The position numbers were made by a program, and so were the translations under genes. Shown one piece after another: positions 78-35,940 of a DNA stretch of 49,339 bases. Each line of letters starts with the position of its first letter. Positions within the stretch are counted from its first letter, which is position 1. The DNA comes from an uncultured Candidatus Peribacteria bacterium (GTDB lineage: Bacteria > Patescibacteriota > Gracilibacteria > Absconditabacterales > Absconditicoccaceae), in assembly GCA_964495825.1 (NCBI GenBank), contig CAZBWI010000041.1, forward strand, positions 1-49,339, given 5' to 3'. The notes beneath the pieces were generated by a model that saw only the letters and a list, made by a program, of their open reading frames with translations, was not told the origin of the DNA and did not search any database.

Positions 78-1319
78 TTATTCATATAAAATTTCCCGGC
101 CTTCAAGTTTCTTGTTAGTCAGGATATAGACGGCACCGCTGTTGCAGTGAGCTTTTTTTATTTGTTTTCATTTCGCATCTATGATATCGACAATCTTCAG
201 TTCCCCCATCTCCGTAGGGCTTAGATATTTGATTTTCATTCCTGGAGTAATGACTTCCTTCGGCTCGATATGGAAATATTTTTTCTTATCTTTCGTGATG
301 AATTCATCGGAGAACATGCCGAAGTAATTGCGATTGAAAAGAGGTCAGGCAGAATCCAATGTCGTCGAGCTGATTGCTTTCTCTCCTTCAGGATATTCAT
401 TCAATGGATGAAAAAGGAAGCCGTCTCGGTATTCTCTATGTGGTACGACATTTACCAGATTCGCTATTTTTGGATCGATTTTCTTTTTCGCCAAGATTGC
501 ATCACGGACATGTTTGTATGCTTTCACTATCGCTCAGACATAAAATTCCGATTTACTCCTTCCTTCGATCTTGATAGCGTCGACATAAGGCAATATCTCT
601 TGTAATTTATCTATCGTGCACAGATCTTTGGACGATAAGATATGACTTCATTGTTCGTCTCCTTCGAGCTGAAATAATTTTCCTGGTCTGCGTTCTTCTT
701 CAAGTCGTACCTTGTATTTGAACCTGCAGGCGTGCGAACATTCGCCCTTATTTCCTGGTCTTCCGCTCATATAATCGCCCAATAAACAGCGTCATGAATA
801 ACTCATGCACATAGCGCCATGGACAAAAACTTCTATCTCTATTCCTGGCACTTTTTCTCTGATTTCTTTGATTTCATCGATATGCAATTCTCTCGCAAAA
901 ACGATTCTTTTTACGCCCATATCTTTCCGGAATTTTACTGCAGCTCGATTCATAGTAGAAGTTTGTGTGCTGAGATGGAGTGGGGTATCAGGCAGATATT
1001 TTCTGATGATATGAAAGGTTCACGGATCAGAAAAGATGATAGCATCAGCTCATACACCAGCTATTTGTTTTACGGTCTGTTCGAATATTTTTATATCTTG
1101 GTTTCTTGGAAAAATATTCATCGTGAGCAATGCTTTGCTTCCATTTTTATGTAGATCATCAATGGTTTTTTTGAGCATATCGAAATTATAGATTTTGTTC
1201 TGTCTCATCCTCAATGATGTAAATGGGACGCCGACATAGACTTCTTCAGCTCCGTAGTAGCTTGCAACCATAGCTTTTTCATAAGATCACCCGGGTGCAA
1301 CTATTATTGGTTTTTTCAT
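78..1319 (-). CDS. peptidase U32 family protein (RlhA/TrhP-like)
   Basis: The 413-aa frame is continuous only if in-frame TGAs are sense. It joins track ORFs 345..527 and 1050..1271. Motifs G-ADAIIFSDP-G and HGAMCMSYSGRCLLGDYMSGRPGNKGECSHACR are typical of U32 proteins. ATG at 1317-1319, TAA at 78-80. Confidence 0.85.
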
Positions 1320-1324
1320 TGTTG

Positions 1325-1460
1325 TTGTAAAATTACTAATAAACATATCCTCTTTATTTCAAAGAAGGAGGTATCCTTTAGGATGGGAGATTTTACAAAA
1401 GTAACAAAATCCTCCGCTCTTCGGGCACCTCCTTTCCTGAAAGGAGGAACATAATAAAAT
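1325..1460. promoter_or_regulatory. structured leader or small RNA candidate upstream of the U32 gene
   Basis: Perfect 8-bp hairpin cctccttt/aaaggagg (1428-1447). Segment 1427-1435 can alternatively pair with aaggaggt at 1365-1372. Palindrome atcctttaggat at 1373-1384. ggagatttt (1386-1394) pairs with aaaatcctcc (1406-1415). Confidence 0.3.
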
Positions 1461-1504
1461 AAGTATATAGTAGTCAATCAGAATTTCAATTTATATTTTT
1501 AATC

Positions 1505-1540
1505 AAAAAGACTGACACATGAATTCATAAGTCAGTCTTA
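1505..1540 (-). terminator. rho-independent terminator after the 1538..1828 gene
   Basis: Inverted repeat agactgac(1510-1517)/gtcagtct(1531-1538), followed on the minus strand by a T-run. Confidence 0.6.
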
Positions 1541-1828
1541 TTTTTTACGTAATTTCCTCTCAATGAGGTCGACTAATATAAAAGCCCATTTGATGATAGC
1601 TTTGATATTTGTCTTAAGGTAATCCAGAATCAAGCTTCCAAAGATAAATCCTATCACCGATATCCAAAGTATCATATTGCCTATGGAACTGAATTGTACC
1701 CCCAAGGATACTGCTATCACAAAGCAGATGAAAAGGATTATTCCTGTGAGGAGATAAGGAAGTGTCTGTGTTTCAAAAAACTCGCGTCTCTGGATTCTTT
1801 TCCGTTTGCGTTTGCTTTTGTTGTACAT
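1538..1828 (-). CDS. small membrane protein (96 aa)
   Basis: Track ORF with a true TAA stop. Basic N-terminus followed by two hydrophobic helices. Confidence 0.6.
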   Translation of the reverse strand: MYNKSKRKRKRIQRREFFETQTLPYLLTGIILFICFVIAVSLGVQFSSIGNMILWISVIGFIFGSLILDYLKTNIKAIIKWAFILVDLIERKLRKK

Positions 1829-1884
1829 GTATGTAGTGTTTTGTTTTTTCTAGAATAGATATTTTTCTTACCAAGGCAATATAA

Positions 1885-2841
1885 CTATTCTAATTCTTCA
1901 ACTTCTTTTATGACTTTTTTGATACGATAGACCTTCAATGCATAAAGCATCTTAAAGAGTAGCATAGCTATACCTGTCATAATCCAGAATTCGATTCTGA
2001 TGAATCCATAAAAAAGCAAAAACATCAGGACGATTACAGAAGCTTTGAATCCTGGCTGTTCATAGATTGTTACAATCTCTCTAAGGACATAATCGCAAAT
2101 ACCCATATTTACACTTGTATTATCCTTGATCGCTTGATCAATCCATGATTTTTTATATTCGTTCAAGGTATCCAAAAACGTGGTATGGTTCGTTTCGTTT
2201 TGGATATTGATTGCTTTGAGGTCTATAATTTTGGAATTCAAGAAAAGCTCTATATTGGTTTTCATTGTTTTGGCTTCCTCAAGACCAAACTTAAACGGTT
2301 TAGCTACAAAATCAATGACACTATTTGAAGCAGCACTGAGCCCTTGGCAGGTAAAAGGAAATTTTTCATAATATCCGATGACGAAGAGACTATATGCTAT
2401 AGTGATGAAGACCGTAAACATATATCCTCATGTTGTAAAATAACTCGTAGAATCCCAGCTTGTTTTTTCGTTTGATGATCCTTGAAGCAACCGAGCGAGA
2501 TATACAATTCCTATATTGATAAAAAACATTGATGCGACGAGAATAAGATGCGAATATCCTATCAAAAATCACTGGATGAGAGTTATCATAAACATGATGA
2601 TTACCAAATAGGTGATCGGCAATTTACGTATTTCTAGATAAAAGAAATGAAAGAAAAGAAAAAAGATCAGAACATAAATCATGGATTCTAAGGCGAAAAA
2701 TTGTCCAAAGAGTCTAACAAAAATGAGTCCATAAGCGATGAGTGTTAGTCAGAGAAAGATTCGTGCTTTTGGTGAACGGAATGTTTTTTTTGCTGTTTGG
2801 ATGGGGTCTACTTTTTGCAGGGATATTTGCTTTTGGGGCAT
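1885..2841 (-). CDS. polytopic membrane protein, unknown function (318 aa)
   Basis: Track ORF 1885..2421 extends upstream through three in-frame TGAs to ATG 2839-2841. That ATG directly abuts the TAG of the prepilin peptidase gene. Several hydrophobic segments; no TAA/TAG in frame (checked triplet by triplet). Confidence 0.75.
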
Positions 2842-3729
2842 CTATCAAAAAATTATGGTGATAAAATAGGGAAGTTTCCATGCGAGTATCCGAAATGCTA
2901 TGATCATAGCGGGAAAGAAAGGAATAACTTTACATTGAGAATGAAGAATTGAGGATTGAGAATATTCCTTTCGTTTTCAATTTTCAATGTGCAATTTGCA
3001 ATTCAGTAGGTAGTGTAGTACTGTTCGAATCAAGCCAATAATACTACTCATCAGGATAAATAATATCAAGATATTTATCATCGTCATTCGTGAAAATGAT
3101 AGCTTGTGGAGCGAAAGTATGATAGGCATCAGTATTCAGATGCTCACCGCTAGATAGATATCGCCTTCACCAAATCCTTCCGGTTGATTGAATCTCATGT
3201 TCGCATATCGTTTACCGAAAAAATAGATGCAGGTGAAAAATCATCCAAAGAGTAATGTAGTCAAAAATGCATATCGAAGATTTCCTACTGGCAAAAAGAT
3301 GTTCGCTAGGATTCCTACAGTTGCCAAAAGTAGCCATCCTACGATATGGAGCTCATATTCTTTCATATCGTAGACCAAGAGGAGAACAAGGAGTTGATTC
3401 GTCAAGAGTCAAAAAATCAATATCGGAGTTCAGAAATCTTTTAATAAGAAATAGGTCAGGAGAAATATTCCGGCAGATATCAATTCCAAGACAGGATAGA
3501 TCCGAGAGATTTTTTTCTTACAATATACACACTTCCCTCATTGGACGAGATAGCTTATGATAGGGATCAGGTTCTTTGCTTTTAATGCATGATGGCAATG
3601 CGGACATTCTGAGCGACCGAAAAAAAATCCGCGAAGCTTTTCCTTCGTTACGCCGTCGGCAAACCTTGTCATGATTACAGAACCAAGTGAGCCGAAGATA
3701 AGTCAGAGGATGAATATCAGTATTCACAT
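2842..3729 (-). CDS. pilD: type IV prepilin peptidase (A24 family, PilD-like)
   Basis: 295 aa after TGA read-through. Carries the CxxC..CxxC knuckle ECPHCHHALKAKNLIPIISYLVQ-G-GKCVYCKK, plus FGEGDIYLAVS and IPFFPAM motifs. Frame scanned: no TAA/TAG between 2845 and 3729. Confidence 0.8.
2933..3006. repeat. short-word imperfect palindromic element embedded in frame in pilD
   Basis: Left arm has tandem words attgaga(a/g), right arm has ttt(t)caat/tgcaat. The arms pair with several G-T pairs on the + strand. It encodes the extra loop ..CKLHIENGKRKEYSQSSILHSQCK.. just before the conserved IPFFP. Confidence 0.55.
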
Positions 3730-3839
3730 ATATCTACTATATCATTACGTTACAAAAAAATCAAGTGGAAGCGTTGACCTTGAATTTTTCGAGTAAGTGG
3801 ATATAGGTACAATACTTCATTTTATTGTTATGTTACACG

Positions 3840-6488
3840 ATGGCGAACGCATATCAACACCAAGAAGTAGAAGCAAAACGAGAAAAATTTCGAGAAGAGC
3901 ATAAGTGCTTTGCTGCTACCATGGATCCTCAAAAACCAAATTATAGCATTGTAATTCCTCCTCCAAATGTAACAGGCGTATTGCATATGGGACATGTCCT
4001 GAATAACAGTATTCAGGATGTTTTGATACGTCGAAAAAGAATGAGCGGATACAATACTTTATGGATGCCGGGAACGGATCATGCAGGTATTGCAACTCAA
4101 AATAAAGTTGAAAGAAAACTTGCTGAAGAAGGCAAAACCAAAGAAGATATTGGAAGAGAAGAATTTATCAAAAAAACCCGAGAACGAAAAGAAAAACATG
4201 GAAATATTATTACCGAACAACTCAGGAAACTTGGAGCATCATTGGATCGAGATAGAGAAAGATTTACGATGGACGAATGACTTTCTGCAGCAGTCAAGGA
4301 AATTTTTATCAAACTCTACCATGATCATTTGATCTATCAATGAGAATATATGGTCAATCGATGTCCAAGATGTGGAACTGCATTAGCTGATGATGAAGTA
4401 GATCATCAAGAGGAAGATGGATTTTTTTGGGAGATACAATATCCGATTGTTGGAACTAATGATTTCGTTATCTTGGCTACAACAAGACCAGAAACAATGT
4501 TGTGAGATACAGGAATAGCAGTCAATCCTCACGATAAGAGATATCAGCACTTAATAGGCCAAAAAGTGCTATTACCATTGATGAATAGAGAGATTCCTAT
4601 AGTTGCTGATGAATATGTCGATATGGAATTTGGAACAGGAGTAGTCAAGATGACTCCGGCTCACGATCCAAATGATTATGAAGTTGCCAAAAGAACAGGA
4701 CTCGAAGTGATCAATATCTTTACTCCAGATGGTAAGATCAATGAAAATGGAGGGAAATATGCTGGATTGGATAGATTTGAAGCAAGAAAAGTTATTATCG
4801 AAGATCTCAAAAAAGAAGGATTACTTGGTACTATAAAACACCATACCCATGCTGTAGGACATTGTTATAGATGTGCTACTATTATCGAACCAAGAATTTC
4901 CAGACAATGGTTTGTAAAAATGGCACCATTAGCCAAACCAGCATTGGAAGTAGTAAAAAGCGGGAAAATAACAATTCAGCCAAAGAGACGAGAAAAGGTA
5001 TATTATCATCGATTGGAAAATATCCGTGATCGATGTATCTCCAGACAGATTCGACGAGGGCATAGGATTCCTGCATGGTACGGACCAGACAATACGGTAT
5101 TTGTAGCACATGATGAAGCTGAAGCGCTATCTCAAGCAGAAGCTCATTATGGGAAAAAGGTATCTCTCACCCAAGAACAAGATGTATTGGATACACGATT
5201 TAGCTCTGCGTTGCGGCCATTTTCTACAATGGGACGACCAGAGCAAACAGATTTGCTCAAAAGATTTTATCCAACTAATGTCCTTGTCACCGGTGCAGAT
5301 ATTATCTTTTTCCGGGTAGCAAGGATGATTATGATGGGGATGTATGAGATGAAAGAGATACCGTTTCATGATGTGTTTCTTCATGGAATTGTAAGAGATG
5401 AACAAGGCAGGAAGATGTCCAAATCTCTTGGAAATTCTCCTGATCCATTGGATTTGATAAGAGACTATGGAGCTGATGCTATCAGATTTACCATGATCTA
5501 CAATACTTCTCAAGGACAAGATGTCCATTTTTCGACTAAGCTCCTTGAGATGGGAAGGAATTTTGCGAATAAAGTACGAAATGTAAGCAACTTCGTATGT
5601 ATGAACCTAGAAGGATTTGATCATACCAACATACACGAATCTGACTTAACCCTGGAATTGGTCGATACGTGGATCTATTCTAGACTCCATTCTACGATCC
5701 AAACCGTAAATGACAAGCTTGATAAATATATCCTCGATGAAGCAGCCAAAGCAGTGTATGAATTTATCAAATGAGATTTTTGTGACCGATATGTGGAAAT
5801 GGCCAAAGTAAGGTTGTATAACAACAATGATAATAGAACTAAAACAACAGCACAATATGTATTGCGAGATGTACTTGAACAATCATTGAGATTACTGCAT
5901 CCGTTTATGCCGTTTGTGACAGAAGAATGTCGGCAAAAACTCGGTACTGGCAAACCAACCATTATGTTGGAAGCATATCCAAGTTTGGACAAAAACAAGA
6001 TTGTTCCAGACATAGAATCAGCGATGCAATATATCCAGGACGTCACAACATCTATCAGAAATATCAGAGCAGAAGCAAATGTTTCGCCTGCAAAACAAGT
6101 CATAGCATTGATCAAGACAGCAGATCAAACAGAGAAAGCAATACTCCAGACAAATACATCATTTATCATGAAATTAGCAAAACTAGAAACGCTAGAATAT
6201 GGTGAAGATATCTCAAAACCTGAATTATCATGATTCCGTGTTGCTTGAAAATCAGAGATTTATATCCCGTTGGCAGGATTGCTTGATATCCAAGCTGAAT
6301 CCAAAAAGATCACCGATCAGATAGAAAAATTGGAACAGTGATTAGCGTCATGTAGAAAAAAATTAGCAGACGAGACCTTTATGTCCAAAGCACCTGCACA
6401 AGTAATCGAAAGAGAAAAACATAACGAAGCAAATTATCTCGACAAAATCCAAAAACTAAAAAAGAATCTGGAATTACTACAAAAGTAG
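3840..6488 (+). CDS. valS: valine--tRNA ligase
   Basis: 882 aa. Joins track ORFs 3825..4280, 4566..5774 and 5793..6233 through TGA codons at Gly positions. Motifs [34 protein letters not shown] stop at 6486-6488. The ATG at 3840 is preferred over the TTG at 3825. Confidence 0.97.
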
Positions 6489-6546
6489 TCACTACTGAAA
6501 AAGTATAGTGATTATATAAGATTGCTTGGTATCTCTCAATGATCAT

Positions 6547-7575
6547 ATGATTTTAGTTTACTCGTTGGATATGTACAACCTCTACCAATCTCATCTCCGA
6601 CAAGATATTCAGCACACCGTCTATCGTAAACCGAAGTTTACCGTAGAGCTTTTTGGCAAGAAATACACAGGAACTATCAAGACAAAAAACATCTGACCTT
6701 TCAATTTCAGTCGATATCAGATCATGGGAGTCGAGCTTCCCAATGATCAGGAATATGTACAACAAGAAGTAGCAAATCTAAAAAAAAAGTTCAGAGGGAA
6801 AGGGATTTTTTTTCAATTAGGCATTACGAACAAGATCGTTCATTTCGAAAATAGCATGAAGAGATGTGCCGAATTTGATCAAGATATGCATGATTTCAGA
6901 CTCTGATTACAAAAAACACTTCATCATCATTACGGCTTCAAACCTGCTTTCCGCGAGAATATGCCGACCGCTACCATCATCTACGATACGACAAAATCCG
7001 ACGAAGAATTTTTGCAGGATATGAATGAAAGTTGCCGCAAACGTGTCAAAAAAGCTATCGCTGGAGGTTTGGAATTTAGGATTGTTGATAAGCATTTCTA
7101 TCCGGAGTTTTTCGAAAAGCGACAATTGACCGCAGGCACAAAAGGATTTAATACTATCTCAAAATTTCAGTACGATGAATTGTTGAAATACTTAGAAAAA
7201 GGTCATGGCATGTTGATTTGAGCGTATCTAGAGGATAGAATGATCGCAGGTACGATCTGCTTGTTTGCTGATAAGATGATCTATTGCCCTTACGGCTTTT
7301 TTGATAGGAATGTTAATAAGATAGGAGTCCAACATTTCTTGAAATATAAACTCTTTTTACGAGCACGTGAACATGGATATAGAGCAGTGGATACAGGTGG
7401 AGGAGCACCGACAGGATTTCCCAACCATCCACTTGCGAGTGTGAGCGCATTCAAAGAATCATTGGGATGAACCAAGACCGAATTGTTTGGTAGTTATGAT
7501 ATCGTGCTCAATAGATTTTTGTATAGCATAATAGTTATGCGATATAGACTAAAATCAATGATCAAAAAATGATAA
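6547..7575 (+). CDS. FemAB-family peptidoglycan bridge-forming aminoacyltransferase
   Basis: 342 aa. Joins track ORFs 6724..6906, 6961..7221 and 7240..7470 in one frame. Contains DTGGGAPTGFPNHPLASVSAFKESLG-G. TAA at 7573-7575. Confidence 0.8.
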
Positions 7576-7760
7576 AAGTTGTTGTAGGAGGGATGATATT
7601 ATTGTAACCATTTATATTGTAATCATATAAAAATGTCTCGGGGCGCTTACGACCTAAGGAAATGATGCAAAAATGGATATTTTTGTGACATACTGAATAG
7701 AGTAAAAGTCCGAATAAGAGGACATCGAAACGGTGTGAGGAATATTTTGAGTAATACGGC

Positions 7761-7786
7761 AAAAAATAGGTTTGTGCCTATTTTTT
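7761..7786. terminator. bidirectional-looking hairpin (A-run/stem/T-run)
   Basis: aaaaaatagg (7761-7770) pairs with cctatttttt (7777-7786), with loop tttgtg. Confidence 0.4.
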
Positions 7787-8045
7787 GTGTTGAGATAAAA
7801 AGAATAATGTACAAGCGAGATATAAAAATTGAAGATAGTGTAGTAATATATGAACTATTATCCTATGTTTTGGGGCAATAGAAAAAATATATCAAAAGAT
7901 GAGACTATGTAGTAGATAAATGCTATGATATTCGTCATTTTTCTTTATTTTGTCAATGCAAAATAGCGATAGCAAGTCTCTATTTTGGTATTTCAAGCCG
8001 TTCGTGGATATAATCAGAATGTGAGATTTTACTTACAATACGTTG

Positions 8046-9482
8046 ATGGAAGAGAAAAAAGCTTACCAAAACTCACAAGAAATTAATCCAAATCAAGGAG
8101 GTTCGCCAGAACCACTCTTGTGATGATGGGAAAATCTGAAGCTTAGTCAATTAGAACCTACCGCTCCTACAGAGAGCGTGATTTCCAAATTAAACGCTGA
8201 AGAATCAAAAATCATCACGCCAGAAGACGTGAAAATAGAAAATATCCATATCCAAGCAGAACCCACAGAAGAGACCAAAACACCCATAAAACTCGGTGAA
8301 AGCGGAATCTTCACTGGTGAACGAAAAAGAAAATATCACAATCAATACCGGAGATTGTTTTTGATATCATTTTTTGTTATCCTCATAAGCGGACTTGCAT
8401 CTGTTGTATTGCGCTTATATAGCCGTTATCTCTATTTCGCAGCACAACCAATTCCTGATCAAAATTACCAAAAAACGATTGATTTGTACAAACAATCAAA
8501 AAGTTTTATAGAAAAAAACTTACATATATCTACCTACCAAAAATATGCTTGATTGTCACGAGAAGGCACAGGCGGAGAGACAAATGTTGCTACTATTCTC
8601 GCTGACAAAAATCTCAGTTTTATCCAAAAAAAAGATATATTGCAACAAGTGCTCAATGGATTTTCTCAGACATTGATAGCAAATACTGAAAAACTTAGTT
8701 CGCTCAAAGAAGGCGTTTCCAAATACGGATTTTTTTCTGAGGAACTCTATAATCTCCTAGAAAATCAAGAATATTCGACATCGATCAAAAAATACCTGCT
8801 TTCACTCGAGGTCATCAAATTTAGTAGTGCAATCAAGGTGTTTAGCTATCTAGACACGTTCATTTCCAGTTTAGCAAATGCGATCAAAGCACCGATATCT
8901 ACAGTCCAAGAAAAGATGCAGCGATTTGCTGAGAGAGGAGAAAAGGATATTCTCGTCTACTTAAATAACTGCTATCTCAATCCGTATGAAATCGATTATG
9001 ATTGCAATATGGTAGGCGATTTTGATAGATATTATGATCTAGTGGACAAGGAAACACCGAGACCAGATACCAATTTTTTTAAGAAGATGATCTATTATGT
9101 AGATAACAAACTAGAGCAGACCGATATTCCGAGTTTTTCCATTACGTTCAAAAAATATAATCCGACCCAGAAACAGATCAGCTTCACTGTCGACGTCAAT
9201 ACCTTCAAACAAGACGAAATCGCATTGATCAAAAAAGGGATTATCAATCCTCATATCTTCATTCTCAGTAATTTATTGAATCTGATCAAACAGAGTATAT
9301 TCGTCGTATCGGAAACCATTGATGCCAAATCGATCAAGATTGTTCCCAAAGTGCTCAAGATCGGAACATCAGTCTTCACCGTCAACAATTCAACTATCGA
9401 TTTCGTATTGCCGATTCAGAAATGATCAGAGAGAGAAATTAGCGATTATATAGATCCGATTTTTACTTCTTCTGAACAATAA
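8046..9482 (+). CDS. single-pass membrane protein, unknown function (478 aa)
   Basis: Track ORFs 8178..8552 and 8553..9425 are in one frame, joined by TGA. The frame stays open upstream to ATG 8046 through a TGA-TGA pair. One TM (LFLISFFVILISGLASVVL). TAA at 9480-9482. Confidence 0.7.
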
Positions 9483-9485
9483 GAA

Positions 9486-10985
9486 ATGGCAGAGCAGACG
9501 CAACAAAAAAAGGTAGTAAATATAGATCTGCAGAAGATGAAGTCTTTTCTCGATGTGTTAAAAAAATATGGTGAAGGAGTATATAATTTTTTTAGAGATA
9601 ATAAGAACAATAGTAAGATAATGCTCTTGATAGCCATCATCACCTTTGGTATCGCTGTTTATTTTGCGATCCAGCTCTACAACGATATTACCTATCTCAA
9701 GAGTAGAACACCTGAGCTAGCACATCTCAAAAGCTACGATACTCGTCAACTTCAGGCGAATGCTTTGACACAGCCACTTCTCAAAACATCTGATACTATC
9801 AATGATCTCATAGAGGAGAATATGCTGACAGAAGGAGAAATACGTAAATATTCAGACTATCTTTCTTCGCTCCAAGTGCCATATACATATTTGCTCCAAT
9901 ACATATATTTACCTTCACTCAATATTTGGAAAGAAAAATATACCAACAAGATAGATATCAATCTCATAGGGATAAAATTTCTAGAGCAAAATCCATTTAA
10001 TGATATTACTTTATTACAAAAACGAGGAGATTTTTTCAAAGACTTATGAGACAACAACGAATCAAATGATGTCCAGGATATGAAGATAGGCGATATTGTT
10101 GAGGATAGTTCATGATATTTTAGTATGCCGATCACAGTATCGTTTCAAGCAAATTCTAAACGTGCTTTCCTCTTGCTATCAGACAAATTGTCGATGACCT
10201 CCAATAAGGAGAATATTTCGTTGATCAATGAATTTTTCTATTATCTACGAAACGAAATCAGAAAAGGGAAAGATAAGGAGATCAAAGCATTGGCAAATGA
10301 GTATGCAAATATATTTTGAACAGGGAAAACTATAGATGATAATATATTGATTGGCTACCATCTCTACAATCGAATATTCAAAGGTGGCAAAAATACACTT
10401 ATCGACAACAAGATCATCGACAAAACAATCAAGAGTATTATTTCTTGTAACAATGACGCTGATGAAGTCTGTTATTACAAATTCAGAGAAAGATATAGAA
10501 ATATTCCAAGTTTTTGATATTTGTTAGGAACAGATTTTGGTACGAATGGTGCAGAAAATCTCAAAAGATTTATCCAAAAGCTTCCACCGATATTTTCTAT
10601 CAAAGAATTTACTTTTGATAAAATAAAAGCACCAACATTTTCTGATGCAAACAATAGTATCTATCAAGGGAAAGTTACTATTATTGTCTACGGAAGGAGT
10701 GCTAGCTCTGAAGAAGTCAATGAGATCGCCAAAGAGCTTGGTAAAAAATGTCTCTGAGAAACAAAACCGCTCACGACAAAAGAATGATTATGACTTATCC
10801 AATCTGCAATTGTCAAATTATCTGAAATAAGCACTATCGACAAGAGCTATGGAGACAATCTCTGGGAATTGAAATGAATCATAGAACAATTGGATAAAGA
10901 CTATGATTCCTTTAGTAACTACAAAAAAACTATAAAGCTTTTTGAACTATATAGGATGCTTTCTGATTCGTGATTATGTAAATAA
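9486..10985 (+). CDS. single-pass membrane protein, unknown function (499 aa)
   Basis: Track ORFs 9486..10049, 10125..10319 and 10521..10757 share one frame. The gaps were scanned and contain only TGA. One TM (IMLLIAIITFGIAVYFAIQL). TAA at 10983-10985. Confidence 0.75.
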
Positions 10986-10995
10986 CCAATAAAAT

Positions 10996-11040
10996 CAAAT
11001 TTCCCCCTTTCCCCATTTATCCTTCCTCCTTCACTCTTCG
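10996..11040. repeat. C/T-only low-complexity tract between convergent genes
   Basis: tttccccctttccccatttatccttcctccttcactcttcg. Shares TTTATCCTTC with the tract at 15661-15725. Confidence 0.5.
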
Positions 11041-11041
11041 T

Positions 11042-11794
11042 TTAGTTCCCAAGGTTGTGCCGGACACGATCTACATCTTCATCTTCTTCTAGTGCATCTA
11101 ATAACTTATAGAGTTTCTCAGTATTTTCTTCATCTAATTTTACAGTATTTTCAGGGATAAATTGGATATCAGCCTCTGTCATATGATAGTGATATTTTGT
11201 TAATTCGTCTTGGACTGTAGCGAAATCCTTCTTGTCCGTATAAATGACTATGGTAGTTTCCTCGATCTCGATATCGCTGATAGGAAGCTCCATTGCGCGT
11301 TCTTCAAGTTCTTCTTTGTTGAGAGGATGAATTTTTTCTACACTTTTTCCTTTTTCTTGTATAGTTTCGGAAATTCAATCTATAACAAAAACGCCTTGTT
11401 CTTTGAATTGCCATGCTACGGAGCCGATAGCACCCATAGTTCCTCCATGTTTTTGCATGATATTTTTTATGTTCGTAGCGCTCCTATTGGTGTTTGATGT
11501 CAAAACCTTGATGAGCAATGCTACGCCTTCCGGTCAGTATCCTTCGTAAAATACTTCTTCGAGATTTTCTCATTCGAGTTGTCCTGATCATTTCAAGATA
11601 GCTTTTTCTACTACATCTTTTGGTAGGTTATATTGCTTCGCTTTGCTGAGTGCGAGTTCGAGTGCAGGATTCATTTTTGGGTCTGCTCACTTTTTGGCAG
11701 CAATTTGAATAAGTTTTCCTATTTTTGCATAATTTTGTGATTTTTTTGCATCTCCGCTAGCTTTTCTTGCTGCGATGCTATGTCGTCTTCCCAT
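11042..11794 (-). CDS. yebC: YebC/PmpR family DNA-binding regulator
   Basis: 250 aa. N-terminus MGR.HSIAARKASGDAKKSQNYAKIGKLIQIAAK; contains YEGY-G-PEGVALLIKVLTSNTNRSATNIKNIM. Extends track ORF 11042..11293 through six TGAs. Frame scanned. Confidence 0.88.
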
Positions 11795-11825
11795 TACTTT
11801 ATTGCTTATAAATTAAAATAAACCG

Positions 11826-11893
11826 ATGAACGATTACGGATTAACGGATTGCGGATTTTTGGTATGTAATTCGTAATTCGAAATTCGTAATTG
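11826..11893. repeat. short-word imperfect palindromic element (recX-yebC spacer)
   Basis: Left arm cgattacggatt-aacggatt-gcggatt, right arm aattcgt-aattcga-aattcgt-aatt. acggatt pairs with aattcgt with one G-T on the + strand. Confidence 0.6.
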
Positions 11894-11906
11894 AGAAATT
11901 GTTTGA

Positions 11907-12338
11907 TTATCTATTCTCGATGACTCTTTTTATGTCAGCCAACTTGTATCATTTCCTGAGTAACTTCTGGATGATATCAAACCCATCTATGTTTTTCTTC
12001 TTATATGCTGCTATTTCTCTTTTGATAGTGCTATAGATACCATCATTCATTGCCTCTTCATATTTCTTGATTACCTCTTTGAGGATATCAGGAGGGATAC
12101 CTTTCTGCTGAAGTTTTTGGATGATTCTGATTGCTGGTTTTCCTTTATTTACTACTTCACTCCTGATATAGCTTTCTGCGAACATCTCATCATTTACATA
12201 ATTCTTTTTTTTTAATTCGGCTATCGTAGCATCTACATCACTGGTTGGATATCATTTCATATACAACTGAATCCTCAACTCTTTTTCAGTCTTTGGGAAA
12301 CGGTGAATGTACTTTAATGCATAATCAAGACACTGCAT
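11907..12338 (-). CDS. recX: RecX-like regulatory protein
   Basis: 143 aa. Track ORF 11949..12185 extends at both ends through TGA. The helical-repeat sequence (..DEMFAESYIRSEVVNKGKPAIRIIQKLQQKGIPPDILKEVIKKYEE..) resembles RecX. Confidence 0.65.
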
Positions 12339-12441
12339 ACCCTTATATTTCAATTAAAAGACAGTAAGATTTTAGATGAAAAGATTTAATACTCAGTGAC
12401 TATGTGACGAATTTTTTTTATCTTTCTTCTTTAAATTTTTT

Positions 12442-13062
12442 TTACTTTTTAAGTGCAAAACGTATGTTGGTTTCATTATTCGTAAATAATGCATCGATAT
12501 CGCCTTGAGGATGTTCCATCGAAACAAATTCAGAGATCAACGCTTCCTGCTTGAAGAACTTCTCGAATTCGATCATGATATTTTTTAGATATTCATCAGT
12601 GGTAAAATAAAATGCTTTCACTTTATCGTCTACATTATAATCAGCATCTTTTCTCATCTGGTTCAAAAATCTAGAGATTTCGCGAGCAACCCCTTCTCTT
12701 TGGAGCTCAGGTGTCAATTCCAGATCGAGCTTTGCTATGATATTTTGATCGACAGCCATATTATCTCATTCCAAACCTTCATACGCGATTTCATATTCAC
12801 CAAGTTCTAGTGTCCATTCATTGCCTTCATGATCAAATATTACAATCTTACCGTCGCCAATATCCTTGATATTACCTTGTTTTCCATATTGGATAATCTT
12901 ACCCGTATCTTTACCAAATTTTGCACTCAATTGTGATCCTATTGGCTTAAATATCTTAGTAATCTTCATAGATTCATCGAGTTTTTCGATATTTTTTACA
13001 TTAACCTCTTCCTTGATAATTTCTGCATATTTTTTCAAAAGATCCTGTGCTACTATGGTCAT
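12442..13062 (-). CDS. stand-alone IleRS C-terminal-domain-like protein
   Basis: 206 aa from ATG 13060-13062. LLKKYAEIIKEEVNVKNI.. and ..LDLELTPELQREGVAREISRFLNQMRKDADYNVDDKV match the extreme C-terminus of type-2 isoleucyl-tRNA synthetases. No catalytic or anticodon-binding part lies upstream; folA diverges at 13241. Confidence 0.6.
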
Positions 13063-13240
13063 TGATATTCTCAAAAATAATAAAAAATGGCTTACAATAT
13101 ATAGTAATATATGCCAAAAAAGCAATCTGAAAATGATATGATAAAAGACATTACGATTGCAAATCAAAAGATTTTGTCTAATAATTATATGATTACTAAT
13201 CTTTTGATATTTCTTCTTTACATTTTGTAATCAGTGAAGC

Positions 13241-13705
13241 ATGATTATCAATATGATCGCTGCGATGGCGTCAAATAGAATCATTGGCAATAAAAATCAA
13301 CTGCCACGACACTACTCGCAGGACCTTCAGCATTTCAAAAAAGTGACATCCGGACATATTGTCGTTATGGGATACAATACCTTTTTGTCAATCGGAAAAC
13401 CACTTTCCAATAGGAGAAATATCATCCTTTCCACGAAACCAGTCGAAGGGATGGAACGATATTCAAATATTGAAGAGATGATGAAACAATTAACATCAGA
13501 AAACGTAGATCAGATTTTCATCATTTGATGAGCAAGTATCTATCGCCAATTTCTCCCAATAACGGACGTCATTTACCTCACAGAAATCAAAAAAGCTTAT
13601 GAGTGAGATACAAGCTTTCCAGAATTTGAACATGAATTTGCTGAGATAGAAAGAATTTCTGATCAATCTTGAGAAATGGATTTCGTCGTGTACAAAAGAA
13701 AATAA
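13241..13705 (+). CDS. folA: dihydrofolate reductase
   Basis: 154 aa. IAAMASNRIIGNKNQLP-CGA-HYSQDLQHFKK (LPW motif), VVMGYNTF, IFII-TGA-TGA-ASIY (GG motif). TAA at 13703-13705. Confidence 0.9.
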
Positions 13706-13709
13706 TAGT

Positions 13710-14525
13710 CTAAAATAATGGTGTAGAGTGATTTTTTTGTCTTATAGTCTCTTTTCTGATGAATTGAGGATATTCTGTATTGTAGAGATAGAAGATGATA
13801 TTCGGATATTTGTATGCTAATTTTTCCAATATCAATTGAGTGATTGCTTCGACATTTTTTTTGCTATCATCACTGAAACCTATCGTGATATGTCTGTTTT
13901 TCATAAATGGTCTGCCGTAGTATCCTTCATAGGTGTGGATAGTTTGTTTGATAGTCTTTTCAAATGCTGCAGCTTTTTTTTCATGTGGCGATTTTTTGCC
14001 TCGTTTGAAACGTTTGATTGTTTCAGGATCTGCACATGGTATATAGAGATTGTTTTTGAGATACTGTTCGATAAGCATCTCATAATGTCTAGATGGAGAG
14101 CGCATATGATTGGCTATATTGTAGGCAAACTCTTCTCTCTCTGCTTCCGTCAAGATTTCATAGATAATAGCTTTGTGGAGTTTCCTAAATTCTTCCATAG
14201 GATTCCCACGAGCAGTGATGATATGAGTCGGAGATGCTTCTATAGTTGCCGTCTTGAATTTTTCTCGGCTCGGTCAAAATGCCTTATCTGACAGCGCATC
14301 AAAGACATCTTTGATGAGTTTTCCGCTTCCTCTGAATTGTCTAAAAGAATGATCCGGGTTGTCATGAAGTTTGACGTTCTCTTTGTCAGTTAATTTTTTT
14401 TCAAAATCGCTATTGGGAACAGCTTCTTCTTTTCGACTTCCATCAGGTTGCTTTATAAGAAGATAGATAGGAGTCTTGGTGTTTACAATGTTTTGATCGA
14501 GATCAAAAACATAGGATTTGAGCAT
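13710..14525 (-). CDS. HAD-superfamily-like hydrolase
   Basis: 271 aa. Track ORFs 13710..14198 and 14274..14525 are joined by TGA. Has FDLDQN (motif I-like), IITARG and GFSDD. The family assignment is tentative. Confidence 0.5.
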
Positions 14526-14549
14526 AGTATGGTTTCAATGATAAAAAAA

Positions 14550-14738
14550 TTAGCGTTTGATGTGAGTATAGATACCTGTGGTATATTCATTGTTTTCAGA
14601 GATAATACTGTCAGAAGATTTTTCGATACTTTCAAAAAGCTCGTCAAGTTCCTCACGTATATCATCGTGATTTTCTAGAGGAATATCCAGAGGAGTTTTC
14701 ATGGGAGAGAATAATAAGTGAAGTAAAATATTATCCAA
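14550..14738 (-). CDS. small acidic protein (50-62 aa)
   Basis: Track ORF with a true TAA stop. No recognisable motif. Start is either 14738 or 14702. Confidence 0.3.
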   Translation of the reverse strand: MDNILLHLLFSPMKTPLDIPLENHDDIREELDELFESIEKSSDSIISENNEYTTGIYTHIKR

Positions 14739-14848
14739 TATTTCTTGATAGAAGAGGTTGTTTAATGACTATATATTTGAAAAATATTATAATATAAAAA
14801 AATGAAGTTAATATCTTATAGATATTTAATATAAAATGTCAACAATAA

Positions 14849-15574
14849 TTAGAGCTGAACATATTTCAGGATTTCTTGTTTATCTTTATACGTATTATGC
14901 AATTCTTCCCAGTTCGGAAGTTGGTCGATGCCGATGTCACCGATCCTAGTCCTTCTGAGTTGGATAAGGGTTCATCCTAGTCCGAGTTCTTTACCGAGCC
15001 GATAGGCTATTGATCTGATATAGGTTCATGATCCGACATCTATTTTCACCTGCAATAATGGAAAATTATAGTTTATTATTTCATAGCTATTCGTCTTCAT
15101 GACTTTATTTTCTTCGATGATATTCCCAGTTCTTGCATCATGATACGATCTTTTCCCTGCTCTTTTTTTGGCACTGAATGCAGGCAAGGGCAATTCATAT
15201 TCCGGGATCAATTTCTGCAGTTTTCTCTCTATTTCGTTTAATGTCGGTGCTTCGACGGTACCATTTTCCATCTCCAATCCAATTTTTTTCCCATCCTTAA
15301 TCCTTAATTCATAATTCTTAATGTCTTTTCGTATCTCCATATCCCATGTGTCCGTTGATTTTGAAAAATCTATTGTCGCGATATAGGATTTGTCCTTTCC
15401 GATAATTTCGGTAAGATGTTTAGTGTCATCATCCAATGCCAAAATCATGAGTCCTGTAGCCATAGGATCGAGCGTTCATCCATGTCCTATCTTTTTGTGC
15501 GGGAAGTACTTCCTAAAAATACGGATCACGTCAAAACTAGTAATTCGTGCTGGTTTATCGACCGCGAGAAACAT
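14849..15574 (-). CDS. truB: tRNA pseudouridine(55) synthase
   Basis: 241 aa. VDKPA.ITSFDVIRIFRK..IGH-G-TLDPMATGLMILAL and DVGS-G-TYIRSIA. Extends track ORF 15026..15463 both ways. Frame scanned. Confidence 0.9.
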
Positions 15575-15660
15575 AAAAAACTCATAAATAATTAAAAATT
15601 GAGCATAGATAATATTGGAATTGGTCTTTATAGACTATTGTTGTATAGTAATAATTTATG

Positions 15661-15725
15661 GGTTTGCAATTCAATCACCATTCACCCTTTATCCTTCACC
15701 ATTCATCATCCATCAATCATCAAAT
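15661..15725. repeat. G-free tandem-word tract in a divergent promoter region
   Basis: caattcaatCACCATTCAccctttatcctTCACCATTCAtcatccatcaatcatc. Confidence 0.5.
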
Positions 15726-15793
15726 TTTAGTTGATTTTATCTACCAAACCGCTATTAATAAAATGATTTTTTTATCCTATTCAAACAGAAAAC

Positions 15794-16183
15794 ATGAAAA
15801 AAACATATCTCGTCATATGTATGTTCAGTGCTGTTGTTTTGGCAGGATGTTCGCTTAAAGTTCAAAAAACAGTCGACACACCTATGGAAAAAGAAGAAAA
15901 GGTGACCACTATAGAAGAAAAGGTAAACGGAGAAGAAACAGAAAATGTTGTTAATACAGGGAATGTTGTTGATATAAAAGAATTGACAGGAACAGGAGAT
16001 TCAGGAGAAGTTTCTGCTATCGAAGGAAGTGAACATGTGAACGTAAACGAAGGATTATCTACTGAAGTAGAGAAAATTATAGAGGAAAGGAATACGCAAC
16101 CAAAAGACGAGAGTAAACTTACCGAAGAGGATATTGATCTGATTCAGCAGATCATAGACAAAATAGAATCTATGAAAAAATAA
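15794..16183 (+). CDS. acidic lipoprotein (129 aa)
   Basis: Signal peptide with lipobox VVLAGC, followed by an E/T/V-rich mature part. TAA stop. Confidence 0.75.
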   Translation: MKKTYLVICMFSAVVLAGCSLKVQKTVDTPMEKEEKVTTIEEKVNGEETENVVNTGNVVDIKELTGTGDSGEVSAIEGSEHVNVNEGLSTEVEKIIEERNTQPKDESKLTEEDIDLIQQIIDKIESMKK

Positions 16184-16343
16184 AACAATTAGTAGTTAAC
16201 ACCATTCTTAGAATAATATGGTATGCGTATATACACTCTATTGTTGTATGATTACTTACTTAGGTAAGAAACACTAATTGCATGCCAAAGATGTACATCA
16301 CGGGAGGGATCTAGACGATTATTTAGCTCATCAGTCATACTTC

Positions 16344-16637
16344 ATGAATACATTCTTTGAAATAATTAAGTGAATATTCTTTTTTCTTACTGTAGTTGTA
16401 GGATTGTTTTTGTTGAGAGGAAATGTAATTTTTGGACCAGAGTACCAGATGCTAATCAAGCAGATGCTCATGCCAGGATATCTCGTTTTCTGCTGAACTA
16501 TGTTTGGGTACATCGTAGCACGCATTCAGCTTGGATACGAAGATGACCATCCACACAAAAATAGAATCTATATCAGATCATTTATCTTTGGTGTGCTTTT
16601 GTGAATTGTGCTCGCCGTTGTTTATATATTTATCTAA
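16344..16637 (+). CDS. small membrane protein (97 aa)
   Basis: ATG 16344 to TAA 16635-16637 with three in-frame TGAs. Three hydrophobic helices. It replaces the antisense track ORF 16331..16525. Confidence 0.55.
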
Positions 16638-16676
16638 GACGAGAAGATAGACTTTAGACCTTAGCATGTAGACCTT

Positions 16677-17219
16677 ATGAAAAAACAATATATACTGATT
16701 TTACTATGCATGATATTGTTTCTCGCTGGATGTGGCTCCAAATGATCTTTTTCGATACCATTTGATAAATTTACTATGATATTCTATAATAATACTACGC
16801 AATATATCGATGTCCAACCAGATACTGTCAGTCCCGGGATGAAAATTCTCAAAGAATACAAGGAAAATACACCAAAAGATTTCACGTGATTTATCAATTC
16901 ATTGCTTATCATCAAGATACCGATACAAACAGGATTTGATATACAAGAAATGGTAGCCAGCAATACCAAAAATCTCCAACTCAAACTCCTTAAATTCAAA
17001 TCTACCGACAATGAAATGAGGAAGGTGAAATGTGGTGATCTACAATATTCTTGATATATTACGGCTTTTTCTTACCAATTAGATACAGGAAATATTTACG
17101 GTGGACAATATTTCTTGATGGATGAGGAAGTATTGTATCTTATCTCACTACACAGTGAAAACAGCAGTGATATACAAAACTTCATCAAAAGCATAAAGAC
17201 CATAAAATGTATCAAATAA
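16677..17219 (+). CDS. lipoprotein (180 aa)
   Basis: MKKQYILILLCMILFLAGC lipobox. Three in-frame TGAs. TAA at 17217-17219. Confidence 0.7.
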
Positions 17220-18054: not shown

Positions 18055-18447
18055 ATGTATCTTTATCACATAGCTTCGCTCATCAAACTAGTACTCGGAG
18101 CACTTATTCTCTTGATTACCTATACATCCATCAATGTCTATGAGGATCCTGTGATAGGCATAGCGCTTGGTGTTGTGTGAATTTTTATCGTAGCACGAGG
18201 AGCAAGTTTTTATCTATTCCTTGGTATCCAAAAGCGATTTCGTGAAATCTCTCAAACCCGTCTCATCAAAGATAGTTACAAGCTTTCATTACTTTTCGGA
18301 ATCTATGTGTTATTCAATGTTTTATTTTTGCTTCTTGGGCATTGGACAAAATTTCTCGGAATCATTTTGCTCGTAGGATTCATCATCTTGCAGGTGGCTT
18401 TATTCTCTGAACAAAAGAAGACAACCAATGAATTCCCAAATATCTAA
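18055..18447 (+). CDS. membrane protein (130 aa)
   Basis: ATG 18055 to TAA 18445-18447, with one TGA and two CGA. Four hydrophobic helices. Overlaps the next start by 20 nt. Confidence 0.65.
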
Positions 18448-18748
18448 TACTATCAAAAAGATCGAAGATAAACTCAAGACAGTGTATGATCCTGAGTTTC
18501 CTATGATCGATATGTATACCTTGTGATTGTTTTACAAGATAGATATTGATGAACATAAAAAAATAGTAACCATTCTCATGACATTTACGACACCATTTTG
18601 TCCCATGGCAGATTATATCAAAGAAATGGTCAGAAATGCTGTTTTGGAAGTTATTCCTACATTTACTATCGAAATCGAAGTAACTTTCGAACCGCCACGG
18701 AATCAGAGTATGATCAAGGATCCTGATCTCCAAAGGATGTTCCAATAA
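18428..18748 (+). CDS. DUF59/MIP18-family Fe-S assembly protein (SufT-like)
   Basis: 106 aa. VYDPEFPMIDMYTL-G-L, TFTTPFCPMADYI, VTFEPP-CGG (PPW motif). Confidence 0.8.
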
Positions 18749-18819
18749 TATTTTCCAATGAAATATAATTTTTACCTCATGCAAATCATTATTTCATTTT
18801 AACTTTTTATTAGGTCTCG

Positions 18820-18851
18820 AAAAAAACCTGGCCATGCACGCAGGTTTTTTT
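18820..18851. terminator. bidirectional rho-independent terminator
   Basis: aaaaaaacctg-gccatgcacg-caggttttttt between convergent genes. Confidence 0.7.
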
Positions 18852-20025: not shown

Positions 20026-20679
20026 TTATTTAGTAATTTGGTATCCGAAGCCTTTTATTGTCTCTATGATTGTTTTACCTAATTTTTTTCTGAGATTGGA
20101 TATATACACATCGAGCTTTGCATCTTCTTCGAAAACTTGATCATTCCCTCGTACTTCTTCTATGATTTCCGTTCTGGAAATGCTTCTTCCTTTTCTTTCC
20201 ATAAGATATTCCAATATCTGAAATTCCTTCAAAGTCAGCTTGATATCCTTGGATCACTTCATCACTTTTTTTTGATCCTTATACAGGCGAATTGATTTGT
20301 ATTCTAAAATATTTTTAGGAGTAGTTCTTTTGGTGATAGATTGGATTCTAGCATCCAACTCTTTGAGATCGAATGGTTTAACAAGATAATCATCTGCACC
20401 AGATTCAAATCATTCGAGTTTATCCTCTAGTTGTCCTTTTGCTGTTGTCATGATAATAGGAATATCAGGTTGTTGTTTTCTTATATGCTTACAGAGTGTT
20501 ATTCCATCCATTCCCGGCAGCATCAGATCAAGTACGACAACATCAAAATCTTGATGTTTGGTGACTTCTAATGCATATAAGCCGTTTTCTGCTCGTACGA
20601 CTGAATGATTTTCCAGTTCGAGATATTTTTTGATATTGTTGCCTATAGTTTTATTATCTTCTACGACCAGGATACGCAT
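20026..20679 (-). CDS. OmpR/PhoB-family response regulator
   Basis: 217 aa. Receiver domain MRILVVEDN..DVVVLDLMLPGMDG plus a winged helix LTLKEFQILEYLM..EEV-CGA-GND..LDVYISNLRKKL. Three track ORF fragments are joined by TGA. Confidence 0.92.
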
Positions 20680-22074: not shown

Positions 22075-23193
22075 CTATAAATTTTTAGCATCTACGATAT
22101 AACCCTTTTTACAACCATTTAGTGCGTTTCTTTTGACTGCTTCATTTCGAAATTGTGTCAGAACATTTGATGATGTATAGGATACATCCCATCATTCTGC
22201 GATTCCTTTCATAACAATATAGCTTTCGCAGACGATATATTTGCTTGGGTTTGTATCTTTCCCGATCATCTTGTGTGCATATGCTGTTCTCCGTTCTGCA
22301 TAATATGGGTTCTTCGTCGTTACATATGTGAAGTTGACGTTAGGTGTTGTTACTAATGGAAGGTTGTATTTCTTGACGAGATAGATGACGGCATCCATAA
22401 TCTTCTGTTTGCCTTGACTAGTAGGGAGTACAGGATCGGGTTCATCAAGCGTATCTATGGATGTTCCAAGCACGGTTCCTGTTTCTTCAGTGATTTCACT
22501 ATCCGTAGAGATACCTGTAAAGACATCTGATGATACTACTTGTGTTCCTGTCGTTTCGCCTAATCATGTTCCGATGATAGTACCTTCTCAGGTATAGACA
22601 TAGCCGTCGATAGGGATCCTATCTTCACCGAAAAAGTTCTGTGCGATATAATCGGAAAAGCTTGATTGAAATTCCTTATGTACCTGATAGTAGTCATACA
22701 CAGTCAAAATCAAACTTAGCATAAGTAATATGAGATATATCCTAGTTCCAAGCAATGCCCAAAAACTTTTTGTGATGCGATGTTTGAACATAAGGGTGAG
22801 CGACATAAATACGATAAATCACAGCACCAATGAGAAAAGTAGCATTGCTTCTACAGCTCCGCTATTGACGAGAAACATAAAGAAGATGATAATCGCTACA
22901 GCGAAACTTACAATAGCTGGCATAAGTAATTCTGATTTCTTTTTGTAGATTTTTGTCGTAGAATGAAAATGGTCATGAAAAGAAATTTTAGCTTCCTTGA
23001 GTGGTTTTTCATGTTCTTTGTATTCTTCTTTAGAATTTTCTACAGTATTGTAGAGTATCCCTATCAGGATGATAGCGATGAGATTGATTGCACCAAGCCG
23101 AAAAAAATTTGCTTGTCACCGCAATACACCTATAATTAAAGGTTGTAATACAAAAAAATAAATACTGAAGAGAAGAAAAAGGTTTTTTTTCAT
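22075..23193 (-). CDS. membrane protein with extracytoplasmic C-terminal domain (372 aa)
   Basis: Joins track ORFs 22192..22473 and 22588..22806 and extends to ATG 23191-23193. Four to five TM segments, a T/G/E-rich linker, then a C-terminal globular part. Frame scanned; TAG at 22075-22077. Confidence 0.75.
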
Positions 23194-23366
23194 TCACTCA
23201 AATAATATTATATAAAAATGTCAATTATTTTTACCTATATATTTGTATATATACACAATACCAAGTGTTTTTCAAGGGTAAAAATTGCAAATTTTGGGGA
23301 AAGGAGTACAATTATATCGATACTCCAATACCTATTTTTTTAGCCATCATTACGCAATACATCATC

Positions 23367-23864
23367 ATGAAGAAATTTATGCTTGCAAGTATTATTATGT
23401 ATAGTTCGTTGATCCTCGTCTGATATGCCCAGATGGTAGTTCCTAATTCTGAGAATTATATTCTCAATGAAAATGATCAGCAGGTACTCAATACAGAAGG
23501 CATCGACGATCCATTGAGATGAGGTGCATATCATATCATCGAACCGGTAGGATGAGGAACAGGAATTGCAGGAGGAGTCGTAGGTATAGGTGATAAGATC
23601 TCTACTTATGAACATGCACAATCTAAGACGCTCAATGTTATTAAGAATATTATCAATTATGCGTTAGGGATGCTTGGACTTGTTGCACTTATTTACTTGA
23701 TCTATCACGGATTTTTGATCGTGACTGCTGCAGGTGATGATACTCAGTATAAGAAGTGAATTAAGGGAATAAAATTCGCTGCGATAGCTATCGCAGGTAT
23801 CGGAGCAAGCTGGCTTATCATCAGCGGTATCTTCCGACTTATCGCTTTAATTATTTGATCATAA
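23367..23864 (+). CDS. VirB2/TrbC-like T4SS pilin candidate (165 aa)
   Basis: Signal peptide, then two hydrophobic helices separated by the charged loop AAGDDTQYKK-G-IKG. Five TGAs. Replaces the antisense track ORF 23340..23621. Confidence 0.5.
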
Positions 23865-23871
23865 AAACACC

Positions 23872-24405
23872 ATGACATCATGTATTTGACAAAAAATTTG
23901 TAGATACCTACTCTATATTCTAGGGAGTATTTTTGCTGTAGGAAGCTTTATTCCTGCTATTTCTTTGTGACAGTTGTCCGATGCGGAATCAGCATTTCCT
24001 TATGATATTCAAGGACAAGAATATGATCCCAATACCGAAATACCTACAACGGATATAGCAACGGATATTATCAAGACTGATACTCAACAATCACAAAGTA
24101 TCCTTCAGAGACTGACAAATTATTTTAGATTGAGCGGGACATCGTATTATACCTGAACATCTCCAGCAACAAATTATGTGAAATGGATTCTTAACATGCT
24201 TTTGGGATTAGTGAGCTTTCTTTCATTGGTGATGGTTGTTTTTGCTTTTTACCTCATTTTCTTCTCCAAGTGAGATGATGCAGTTGGAAAAGCAAAGAAG
24301 ATTTTGATAGGTGTAGGTATAGCACTCGCAATTATGTGATTATCGCGATTTATCGCAAGTTTCTTCTTCGATATTTATGGAACCGTTACAGGAACTTGAG
24401 TATAG
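23872..24405 (+). CDS. VirB2/TrbC-like T4SS pilin candidate, paralog (177 aa)
   Basis: Same architecture as the previous gene (..VMVVFAFYLIFFSK-G-DDAVGKAKKILIGVGIALAIM..). Contains track ORF 23974..24156. Confidence 0.5.
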
Positions 24406-24427
24406 TTTTATCTTTTTCGATTGATAA

Positions 24428-25132: not shown

Positions 25133-25163
25133 TTATTATATACTTACCGTATATACAAGACAT

Positions 25164-25189
25164 AAAAAATCCGTAGAGACGGATTTTTG
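25164..25189. terminator. bidirectional rho-independent terminator
   Basis: aaaaaatccgt-agag-acggattttt between convergent genes. Confidence 0.7.
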
Positions 25190-35936: not shown

Positions 35937-35940
35937 CAAA

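Follow-up and report, generated by a model that had tools for sequence, protein, structure and literature searches.

Reassignments of sense codons are very rare in free-living bacteria, and clean comparative evidence for one is of some value. The closest described system is the code of the Absconditabacteria, for which Shulgina and Eddy (2021, eLife, PMC8629427) predicted a change of CGA and CGG from Arg to Trp on top of the change of UGA to Gly. A second algorithm, KACI (bioRxiv 10.64898/2026.04.02.715157), re-detects the same code, and a 2026 paper in Nucleic Acids Research treats it as an established case. In the 2021 study, the CGA/CGG reassignments were likened to an early stage in which the codons are still rare. 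Per 10,000 Pfam-aligned codons, CGA was counted 22–41 times, CGG 1–24 times and UGG 35–68 times. The highest share of CGA plus CGG (CGR) among Trp codons was 0.61, in GCA_002791215.1, a genome in which neither tRNA(UCG) nor tRNA(CCG) was detected (PMC8629427). Here, we describe a 49,339-nt stretch (contig CAZBWI010000041.1 of assembly GCA_964495825.1, positions 1–49339, called the window) from an uncultured Candidatus Peribacteria bacterium placed in the Absconditicoccaceae. The analysis centers on its valine-tRNA ligase gene, valS (3840–6488, + strand). A reading of the letters alone (the sequence-only reading) had proposed that CGA and CGG mean Trp here, layered on UGA as Gly, and had correctly pointed to the 2021 prediction. 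The reassignment is already known for the Absconditabacteria; the window adds a further example, one that is unusually clear.

The window agrees with the published Absconditabacteria in what the three codons mean, in lineage, in its low GC content and in the placement of Arg on AGA/AGG (AGR) and CGT/CGC (CGY). The difference is one of degree and not of kind: in the window CGA alone exceeds TGG, the CGR share is 0.66, and usage is near neutral equilibrium. NCBI translation table 25 (SR1/Gracilibacteria) also has UGA as Gly and TAA and TAG as stops, but it keeps CGA and CGG as Arg and mistranslates about two-thirds of the Trp residues of the window. The code lies outside all standard translation tables, as the sequence-only reading had said. 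Anaerococcus and the RFN20/Onthovivens Bacilli, reported in the same 2021 screen, are low-GC genomes in which an Arg codon has likewise been captured by Trp. There, CGG alone changes and CGA stays Arg because it is read by tRNA-Arg(ICG), whereas CGA is the main reassigned codon in the window. The change of both codons here fits decoding by a tRNA with U34 together with the absence of tRNA(ACG). Plant organelles also have CGG in the DNA where homologues have Trp. That arises from editing of the mRNA with no change of code, and it cannot account for CGA where UGA is Gly.

The window has a GC content of 36.5%. Open reading frames (ORFs) with TAA and TAG as the sole stops cover 92% of it and contain 264 in-frame TGA codons. 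The long ORFs hold 102 CGA, 47 CGG, 78 TGG, 54 CGT, 27 CGC, 249 AGA and 85 AGG codons, and CGR makes up 66% of the Trp codons (0.80 in valS). The valS gene itself has 17 CGA, three CGG, five TGG, three CGT, no CGC, 28 AGA and six AGG codons, with seven in-frame TGA. Its CGR codons start at positions 3879, 3891, 4032, 4179, 4185, 4248, 4359, 4989, 5010, 5031, 5052, 5055, 5196, 5214, 5235, 5313, 5577, 5787, 5865 and 5931.

We searched for ValRS homologues with CGA and CGG masked as X and aligned 120 of them. At every one of the 20 CGR columns the majority residue is Trp, found in 61–102 of the 103 homologues below 75% identity; these are mostly from Fusobacteriota, which use the standard code. 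This holds for CGA (17/17) and for CGG (3/3). By simple arithmetic, with Trp columns making up about 25 of 882, the chance of such a result is approximately 1e-31. The ValRS of T. thermophilus (1gax) has Trp at the same motifs. Most of the other entries at these columns are "R"; three columns have Phe, Tyr, Leu or Met. The "R" entries are presumably sequences of relatives that are themselves mistranslated. The control columns, scored on 78 homologues below 70% identity, behaved as expected of ordinary codons: CGT fell on Arg columns in 3/3 cases, AGG in 6/6 and AGA in 22/28, TGG fell on Trp columns in 4/5, and TGA fell on Gly columns in 6/7. These controls, in which CGC does not occur, agree with the earlier claims that conserved Arg residues use AGA, AGG, CGT or CGC and that TGG still means Trp; the exchange pattern described below agrees as well. 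The sequence-only reading had also stated that the conserved Trp positions it recognised in ValRS are almost all CGR and that one uses TGG. The former stands. The latter is true only of the motifs it listed, the whole gene having five TGG codons.

The same Trp columns can be followed at the DNA level. At the 25 Trp columns of valS, Fusobacteriota use TGG nearly throughout, with Tyr, Phe or Met codons at three, and have no CGR anywhere in the gene. Relatives that use TGA as a sense codon carry TGG, CGG and CGA mixed at the same columns. The number of CGR codons per valS gene rises from 1–2 in two of these relatives (L006, L009) through 8–9 to 17–21 in the subclade of the window. Expressed as CGR versus TGG, the counts are 0 versus 23–24 in Fusobacteriota; the window and its three closest relatives have 20–21 versus 4–5, except for L012 with 17 versus 8. 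At column 676, two oral SR1 metagenome-assembled genomes (MAGs; L041 and L045) have AGA, against a Trp codon in all other sequences. The probable explanation is a genuine Trp-to-Arg substitution by way of CGA to AGA, a step that would have been silent under the old code.

Independent families elsewhere in the window give the same answer. Every codon that the sequence-only reading had listed by position is the codon it named, in the frame it named (4989, 5010, 5031, 5052, 5055, 5196, 5214, 5235, 13307, 18698, 41642 and 42222 on the + strand; 20149–20151 and 37174–37176 on the − strand). In folA, which encodes DHFR (13241–13705, +), the CGA of the LPW motif at 13307–13309 aligns with Trp in all three solved DHFR structures compared; a second CGA (13457) falls on a variable column with V, V and I. 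The CGA at 42222–42224 in sufS (41862–43052, +), in HHANILP-X-Q, aligns with Trp in 3/3 solved SufS/CsdB structures. The CGG at 41642–41644 in the guanine deaminase gene (41372–41839, +), in AIS-X-AR, corresponds to the W of AIYWAR in B. subtilis GuaD (1tiy, 1wkq). In the OmpR-type response regulator (20026–20679, −; Pfam PF00072 and PF00486), the CGA of the winged-helix motif EEV-X-G at 20149–20151 aligns with Trp in 3/3 solved homologues. The agreement of DHFR, SufS, GuaD and the OmpR-type regulator noted earlier is thereby borne out by proteins of known structure. The two remaining families were checked against relatives, among which TGG, CGA and CGG alternate. The CGG at 18698–18700 in the DUF59/FeS-assembly gene (18428–18748, +; PF01883), in EPP-X, is TGG in three loci and CGA in two. 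The CGA at 37174–37176 in the DUF58 gene (36598–37320, −; PF01882), in IN-X-K, is CGA in four relatives, CGG in two and TGG in one. In uvrA (26582–29680, −), the codons CGG 28532, CGA 27755 and CGA 26978 align with Y/W, H/Y and Y/Y in the UvrA proteins of T. maritima and G. stearothermophilus, all aromatic and at no site Arg. Among the compared proteins, no conserved Arg was found under a CGR codon, and the remaining CGR codons fall on variable columns that are mostly hydrophobic or aromatic.

Pfam supports the family names given by the sequence-only reading (DUF59/FeS_assembly_P, DUF58, an OmpR-type regulator and a CMP/dCMP-type deaminase). That reading had also placed the DUF59 gene on the correct strand. 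An antisense ORF at 18185–18835 (−), of 216 aa when TGA is read as sense, overlaps and exceeds the true gene but is spurious; relaxing the stop set by making TGA a sense codon produces long ORFs of this kind.

The second line of evidence is codon exchange between the window and its relatives. A scan of species-representative genomes yielded three close TGA-sense relatives (L001, L002 and L012; 82–83% ValRS identity), which are syntenic with the window over 78–17219, as well as more distant TGA-sense relatives, one of them labelled candidate division SR1. A metagenome scan with UvrA added another 27 loci; of these, about 14 show synteny with the window over 16.6–38.8 kb. Exchanges were counted as pairwise, codon-by-codon comparisons outside valS. 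Where the window has CGA or CGG, the relatives have CGA, CGG or TGG in 554 of 637 comparisons (368/440 for CGA sites, 186/197 for CGG sites) and AGR or CGY in two; the remaining partners are mainly TAT, CAT and TTT. In the 16.6–38.8 kb set, TGG occurs in at least one relative at 42 of 53 CGR sites of the window, and an Arg codon at one. TGG was found in no relative at any of 135 AGA, CGT or CGC sites of the window. The codons AGA, AGG, CGT and CGC exchange among each other and with Lys codons. The reverse comparison is symmetrical, in that TGG of the relatives pairs with CGA or CGG of the window. Where the window has TGA, the relative has TGA or GGN in 1143 of 1512 comparisons.

Both reassignments meet in one motif of rsmE (38819–39562, −). 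Four solved RsmE homologues have E-Q-x-x-R, while the window has E-Q-S-CGA-TGA-CGA, with the three codons CGA-TGA-CGA, read Trp-Gly-Trp, at 39092–39100. This was considered as a counter-example, since the conserved Arg of EQxxR falls among these codons, and it was ruled out: the corresponding codons of a relative (L109) are TGG-GGA-TGG. The DNA of that relative shows that the lineage truly has W-G-W here. The conserved Arg of the motif is replaced in the lineage of the window by a Gly between two Trp residues. In the alignment, CGR sites of RsmE fall opposite aromatic or variable residues and at no point opposite a conserved Arg. The public copy of this RsmE (P0121), translated with table 4, reads EQSRWR where the protein is EQSWGW, and is therefore wrong in two ways, with W for G at TGA and R for W at CGA. 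Window positions 32903–41116 are matched with 100% identity by a Logan contig from run ERR14964780, and a 79-kb NCBI contig carries the same RsmE. In the protein collection searched, which does contain the RsmE of the window, the exact valS product did not turn up among the matches, the best of which had 85% identity.

Deep homology to standard-code proteins and codon exchange with syntenic relatives of the same code are two independent lines, and at the level of sequence both support the same meaning of CGR. We consider it highly probable that the code of the window departs from the standard at three codons, UGA being Gly and CGA and CGG being Trp, that CGU, CGC, AGA and AGG are retained as Arg and UGG as Trp, and that the reassignment is complete. 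The lineage would be a freshwater-type member of SR1/Absconditabacterales, and its CGN box would be split by tRNAs, with anticodon GCG for CGY and anticodons UCG and CCG for CGR. The nearest valS, rsmE and uvrA loci come from TGA-sense MAGs, several of them labelled candidate division SR1, Absconditabacterales or Absconditicoccaceae. The earlier claim of a Trp meaning layered on UGA as Gly is thus upheld by both lines.

The codon meanings come from the window itself, and for the decoding machinery we draw on a relative and on the literature. In the relative L006 (8163–8379, −), a tRNA(UCG) gene lies 74 nt from tRNA-Trp(CCA). With its ends set by the Rfam tRNA model, this tRNA has G73, G1-U72, the D-loop AGUGGUA (U20, and so no A20), G37 and a U27-C43 mismatch. 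G73 without A20, backed by G1-U72, is the criterion that Shulgina and Eddy used for a Trp-type tRNA (PMC8629427), and the Trp-type tRNA(UCG) of the published code is matched here in G73 and the lack of A20. Because of the mismatch, the anticodon stem is effectively 4 bp. The D-loop and the T-stem are identical to those of the adjacent tRNA-Trp(CCA). In the Absconditabacterales genomes listed in the source table of the same study, tRNA(ACG) is absent and tRNA(GCG) is present in every one; tRNA(CCA) is missing from one of them, and GCA_002791215.1 is the sole genome listed without tRNA(UCG) and tRNA(CCG). With tRNA(ACG) absent and tRNA(GCG) present, CGY can stay Arg while CGR changes. We propose that in the split CGN box a tRNA with anticodon GCG would read CGU and CGC as Arg, which is possible because the group lacks an inosine-forming tRNA-Arg(ACG). 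The tRNA(UCG), along with tRNA(CCG), would have lost the Arg identity element A20 and would carry the Trp-type discriminator G73, and these changes would lead to charging by tryptophanyl-tRNA synthetase (TrpRS) and to reading of CGA and CGG. A single transition separates UGG from CGG, and another CGG from CGA, and the three Trp codons would be used near mutational equilibrium. Such use of three synonymous codons would have CGR supply about two-thirds of the Trp codons.

Several points weigh against this account. ARAGORN found no tRNA gene in the window, and among the 31 TGA-sense loci scanned those of its subclade had none either. Bacterial TrpRS relies on the anticodon CCA as a major identity element, and acceptance of a UCG anticodon by this enzyme is a difficulty. 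A few CGR sites of the window, such as residues 89 and 114 of the DUF58 protein, are variable among relatives; we regard these as uninformative rather than contrary. A 2026 preprint states that these Arg reassignments are without experimental verification.

Standard decoding would make the CGR codons true arginines, either because Trp has been replaced by Arg in the lineage or because the genes are decaying. It is a formal possibility, and public databases do translate the lineage in this way (e.g. P0121, P0001–P0016). It would require Arg to have taken the place of Trp at 20 of 25 conserved positions in an essential synthetase, always by CGR and never by the far commoner AGA, and those sites would have to switch between TGG and CGR from one close relative to another. 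The ORFs are intact and the coding density is 92%. The codon-exchange pattern already refutes this explanation, and we give it a negligible probability. C-to-U editing of the first codon base, with an otherwise table-25 code, would leave CGR in the DNA and a Trp codon in the mRNA. For CGG this would work, as editing would yield UGG, and there is a precedent: plant mitochondrial CGG was once misread as a Trp codon. CGA, however, is the commoner of the two codons in the window (102 versus 47). Edited CGA would be UGA, which is Gly here, and yet CGA falls on Trp columns; on this count editing fails. The tRNA(UCG) of L006, with its Trp-type identity features, also argues against editing, and we know of no bacterial system of mRNA C-to-U editing on such a scale. 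We consider this explanation extremely improbable.

Somewhat more room must be left for ambiguous decoding, in which CGA and CGG would be translated sometimes as Trp and sometimes as Arg, through competing tRNAs or a tRNA(UCG) of dual identity, to give a statistical proteome. In its favor, no decoding tRNA was found in the window. The tRNA(UCG) of L006 retains C35, G36 and G37, as Arg tRNAs typically do, and Shulgina and Eddy (PMC8629427) note that ambiguity can be excluded only by experiment. Against it, CGR is kept off conserved Arg columns and makes up two-thirds of the Trp codons, including those of invariant active-site Trp residues of valS, where frequent insertion of Arg would be very costly. 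CGR also exchanges with AGR or CGY in just two of 637 comparisons. Taken together, partial Arg decoding appears improbable, and a complete change of CGR to Trp is the reading that we carry forward.

The usage of the Trp codons bears on the stage that this complete reassignment has reached. Among TGA-sense loci that have over about 20 Trp codons, CGR accounts for between 0.13 and 0.69 of these codons, the window standing at 0.66. The total of CGR and TGG is steady at approximately 1.0–2.0% of codons, with most loci at 1.3–1.7%, despite the varying CGR share, which is the compensation expected of synonymous codons. Given that UGG, CGG and CGA are joined by single transitions, neutral change under AT-biased mutation should give TGG:CGA:CGG = b:b:1. 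The counts in the window, 78:102:47, are compatible with b of about 1.8–2 (chi-square p approximately 0.2), and the GC content of 0.376 at four-fold sites gives b of about 1.7. Selection against UGG, through misreading by tRNA-Gly(UCA), was considered and rejected: CGR is not enriched at conserved relative to variable Trp sites (80:38 versus 20:13; Fisher p=0.53). This lack of enrichment and the neutral-fitting proportions leave no sign of such selection. The lineage gives the impression of having completed the reassignment and then drifted to mutational equilibrium.

The valS gene has a history of its own. The ValRS proteins of the TGA-sense clade (window 3840–6488; loci L001–L053) are 65–72% identical to those of Fusobacteriota and approximately 50% identical to those of other phyla. 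In a neighbor-joining tree, the clade falls within the Fusobacteriota radiation, with L053 branching outside. These comparisons suggest that valS was acquired by an old horizontal transfer. A donor-type valS, having no CGA or CGG, would have posed no conflict with the new code upon arrival. We put forward tentatively, at slightly less than even chances, that the freshwater subclade (the window, L001, L002, L012 and roughly L081–L093) documents, for the first time, a bacterial sense-codon reassignment at its end stage. CGR would have rebounded, CGA would have passed UGG as the main Trp codon, usage would be neutral, and about 80% of the Trp codons of a valS from Fusobacteriota would have been rewritten from UGG to CGG to CGA after the code changed. 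If this is true, the Fusobacteriota-derived valS is a built-in record of the rewriting of Trp codons. The lineage illustrates completed codon capture, as well as the split of the CGN box when inosine decoding is absent.

The reassignment has practical consequences. No standard table holds the code, and so the public proteins of the lineage are wrong at approximately 1% of residues; a 2026 preprint states that standard tools are limited to tables 11, 4 and 25. Two-thirds of the Trp residues of the lineage are written as Arg in public proteins, and some records translated with table 4 write the Gly of UGA as Trp. For Absconditabacterales, this mistranslation affects searches for homologues, the prediction of structures, phylogenomics and metaproteomic databases.

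The window also holds other features. The region 22075–35143 contains a type IV secretion pilin (PF18895, 23367–23864) and a second pilin-like ORF. Two large paralogous multi-pass membrane proteins, at 30666–32621 and 32642–35143, have no Pfam matches. The region 43177–49194 encodes a 2005-aa protein with 25 CGR codons, in which CGG exceeds CGA; the GC content of this region is 0.40–0.42, and it has a strong purine skew.

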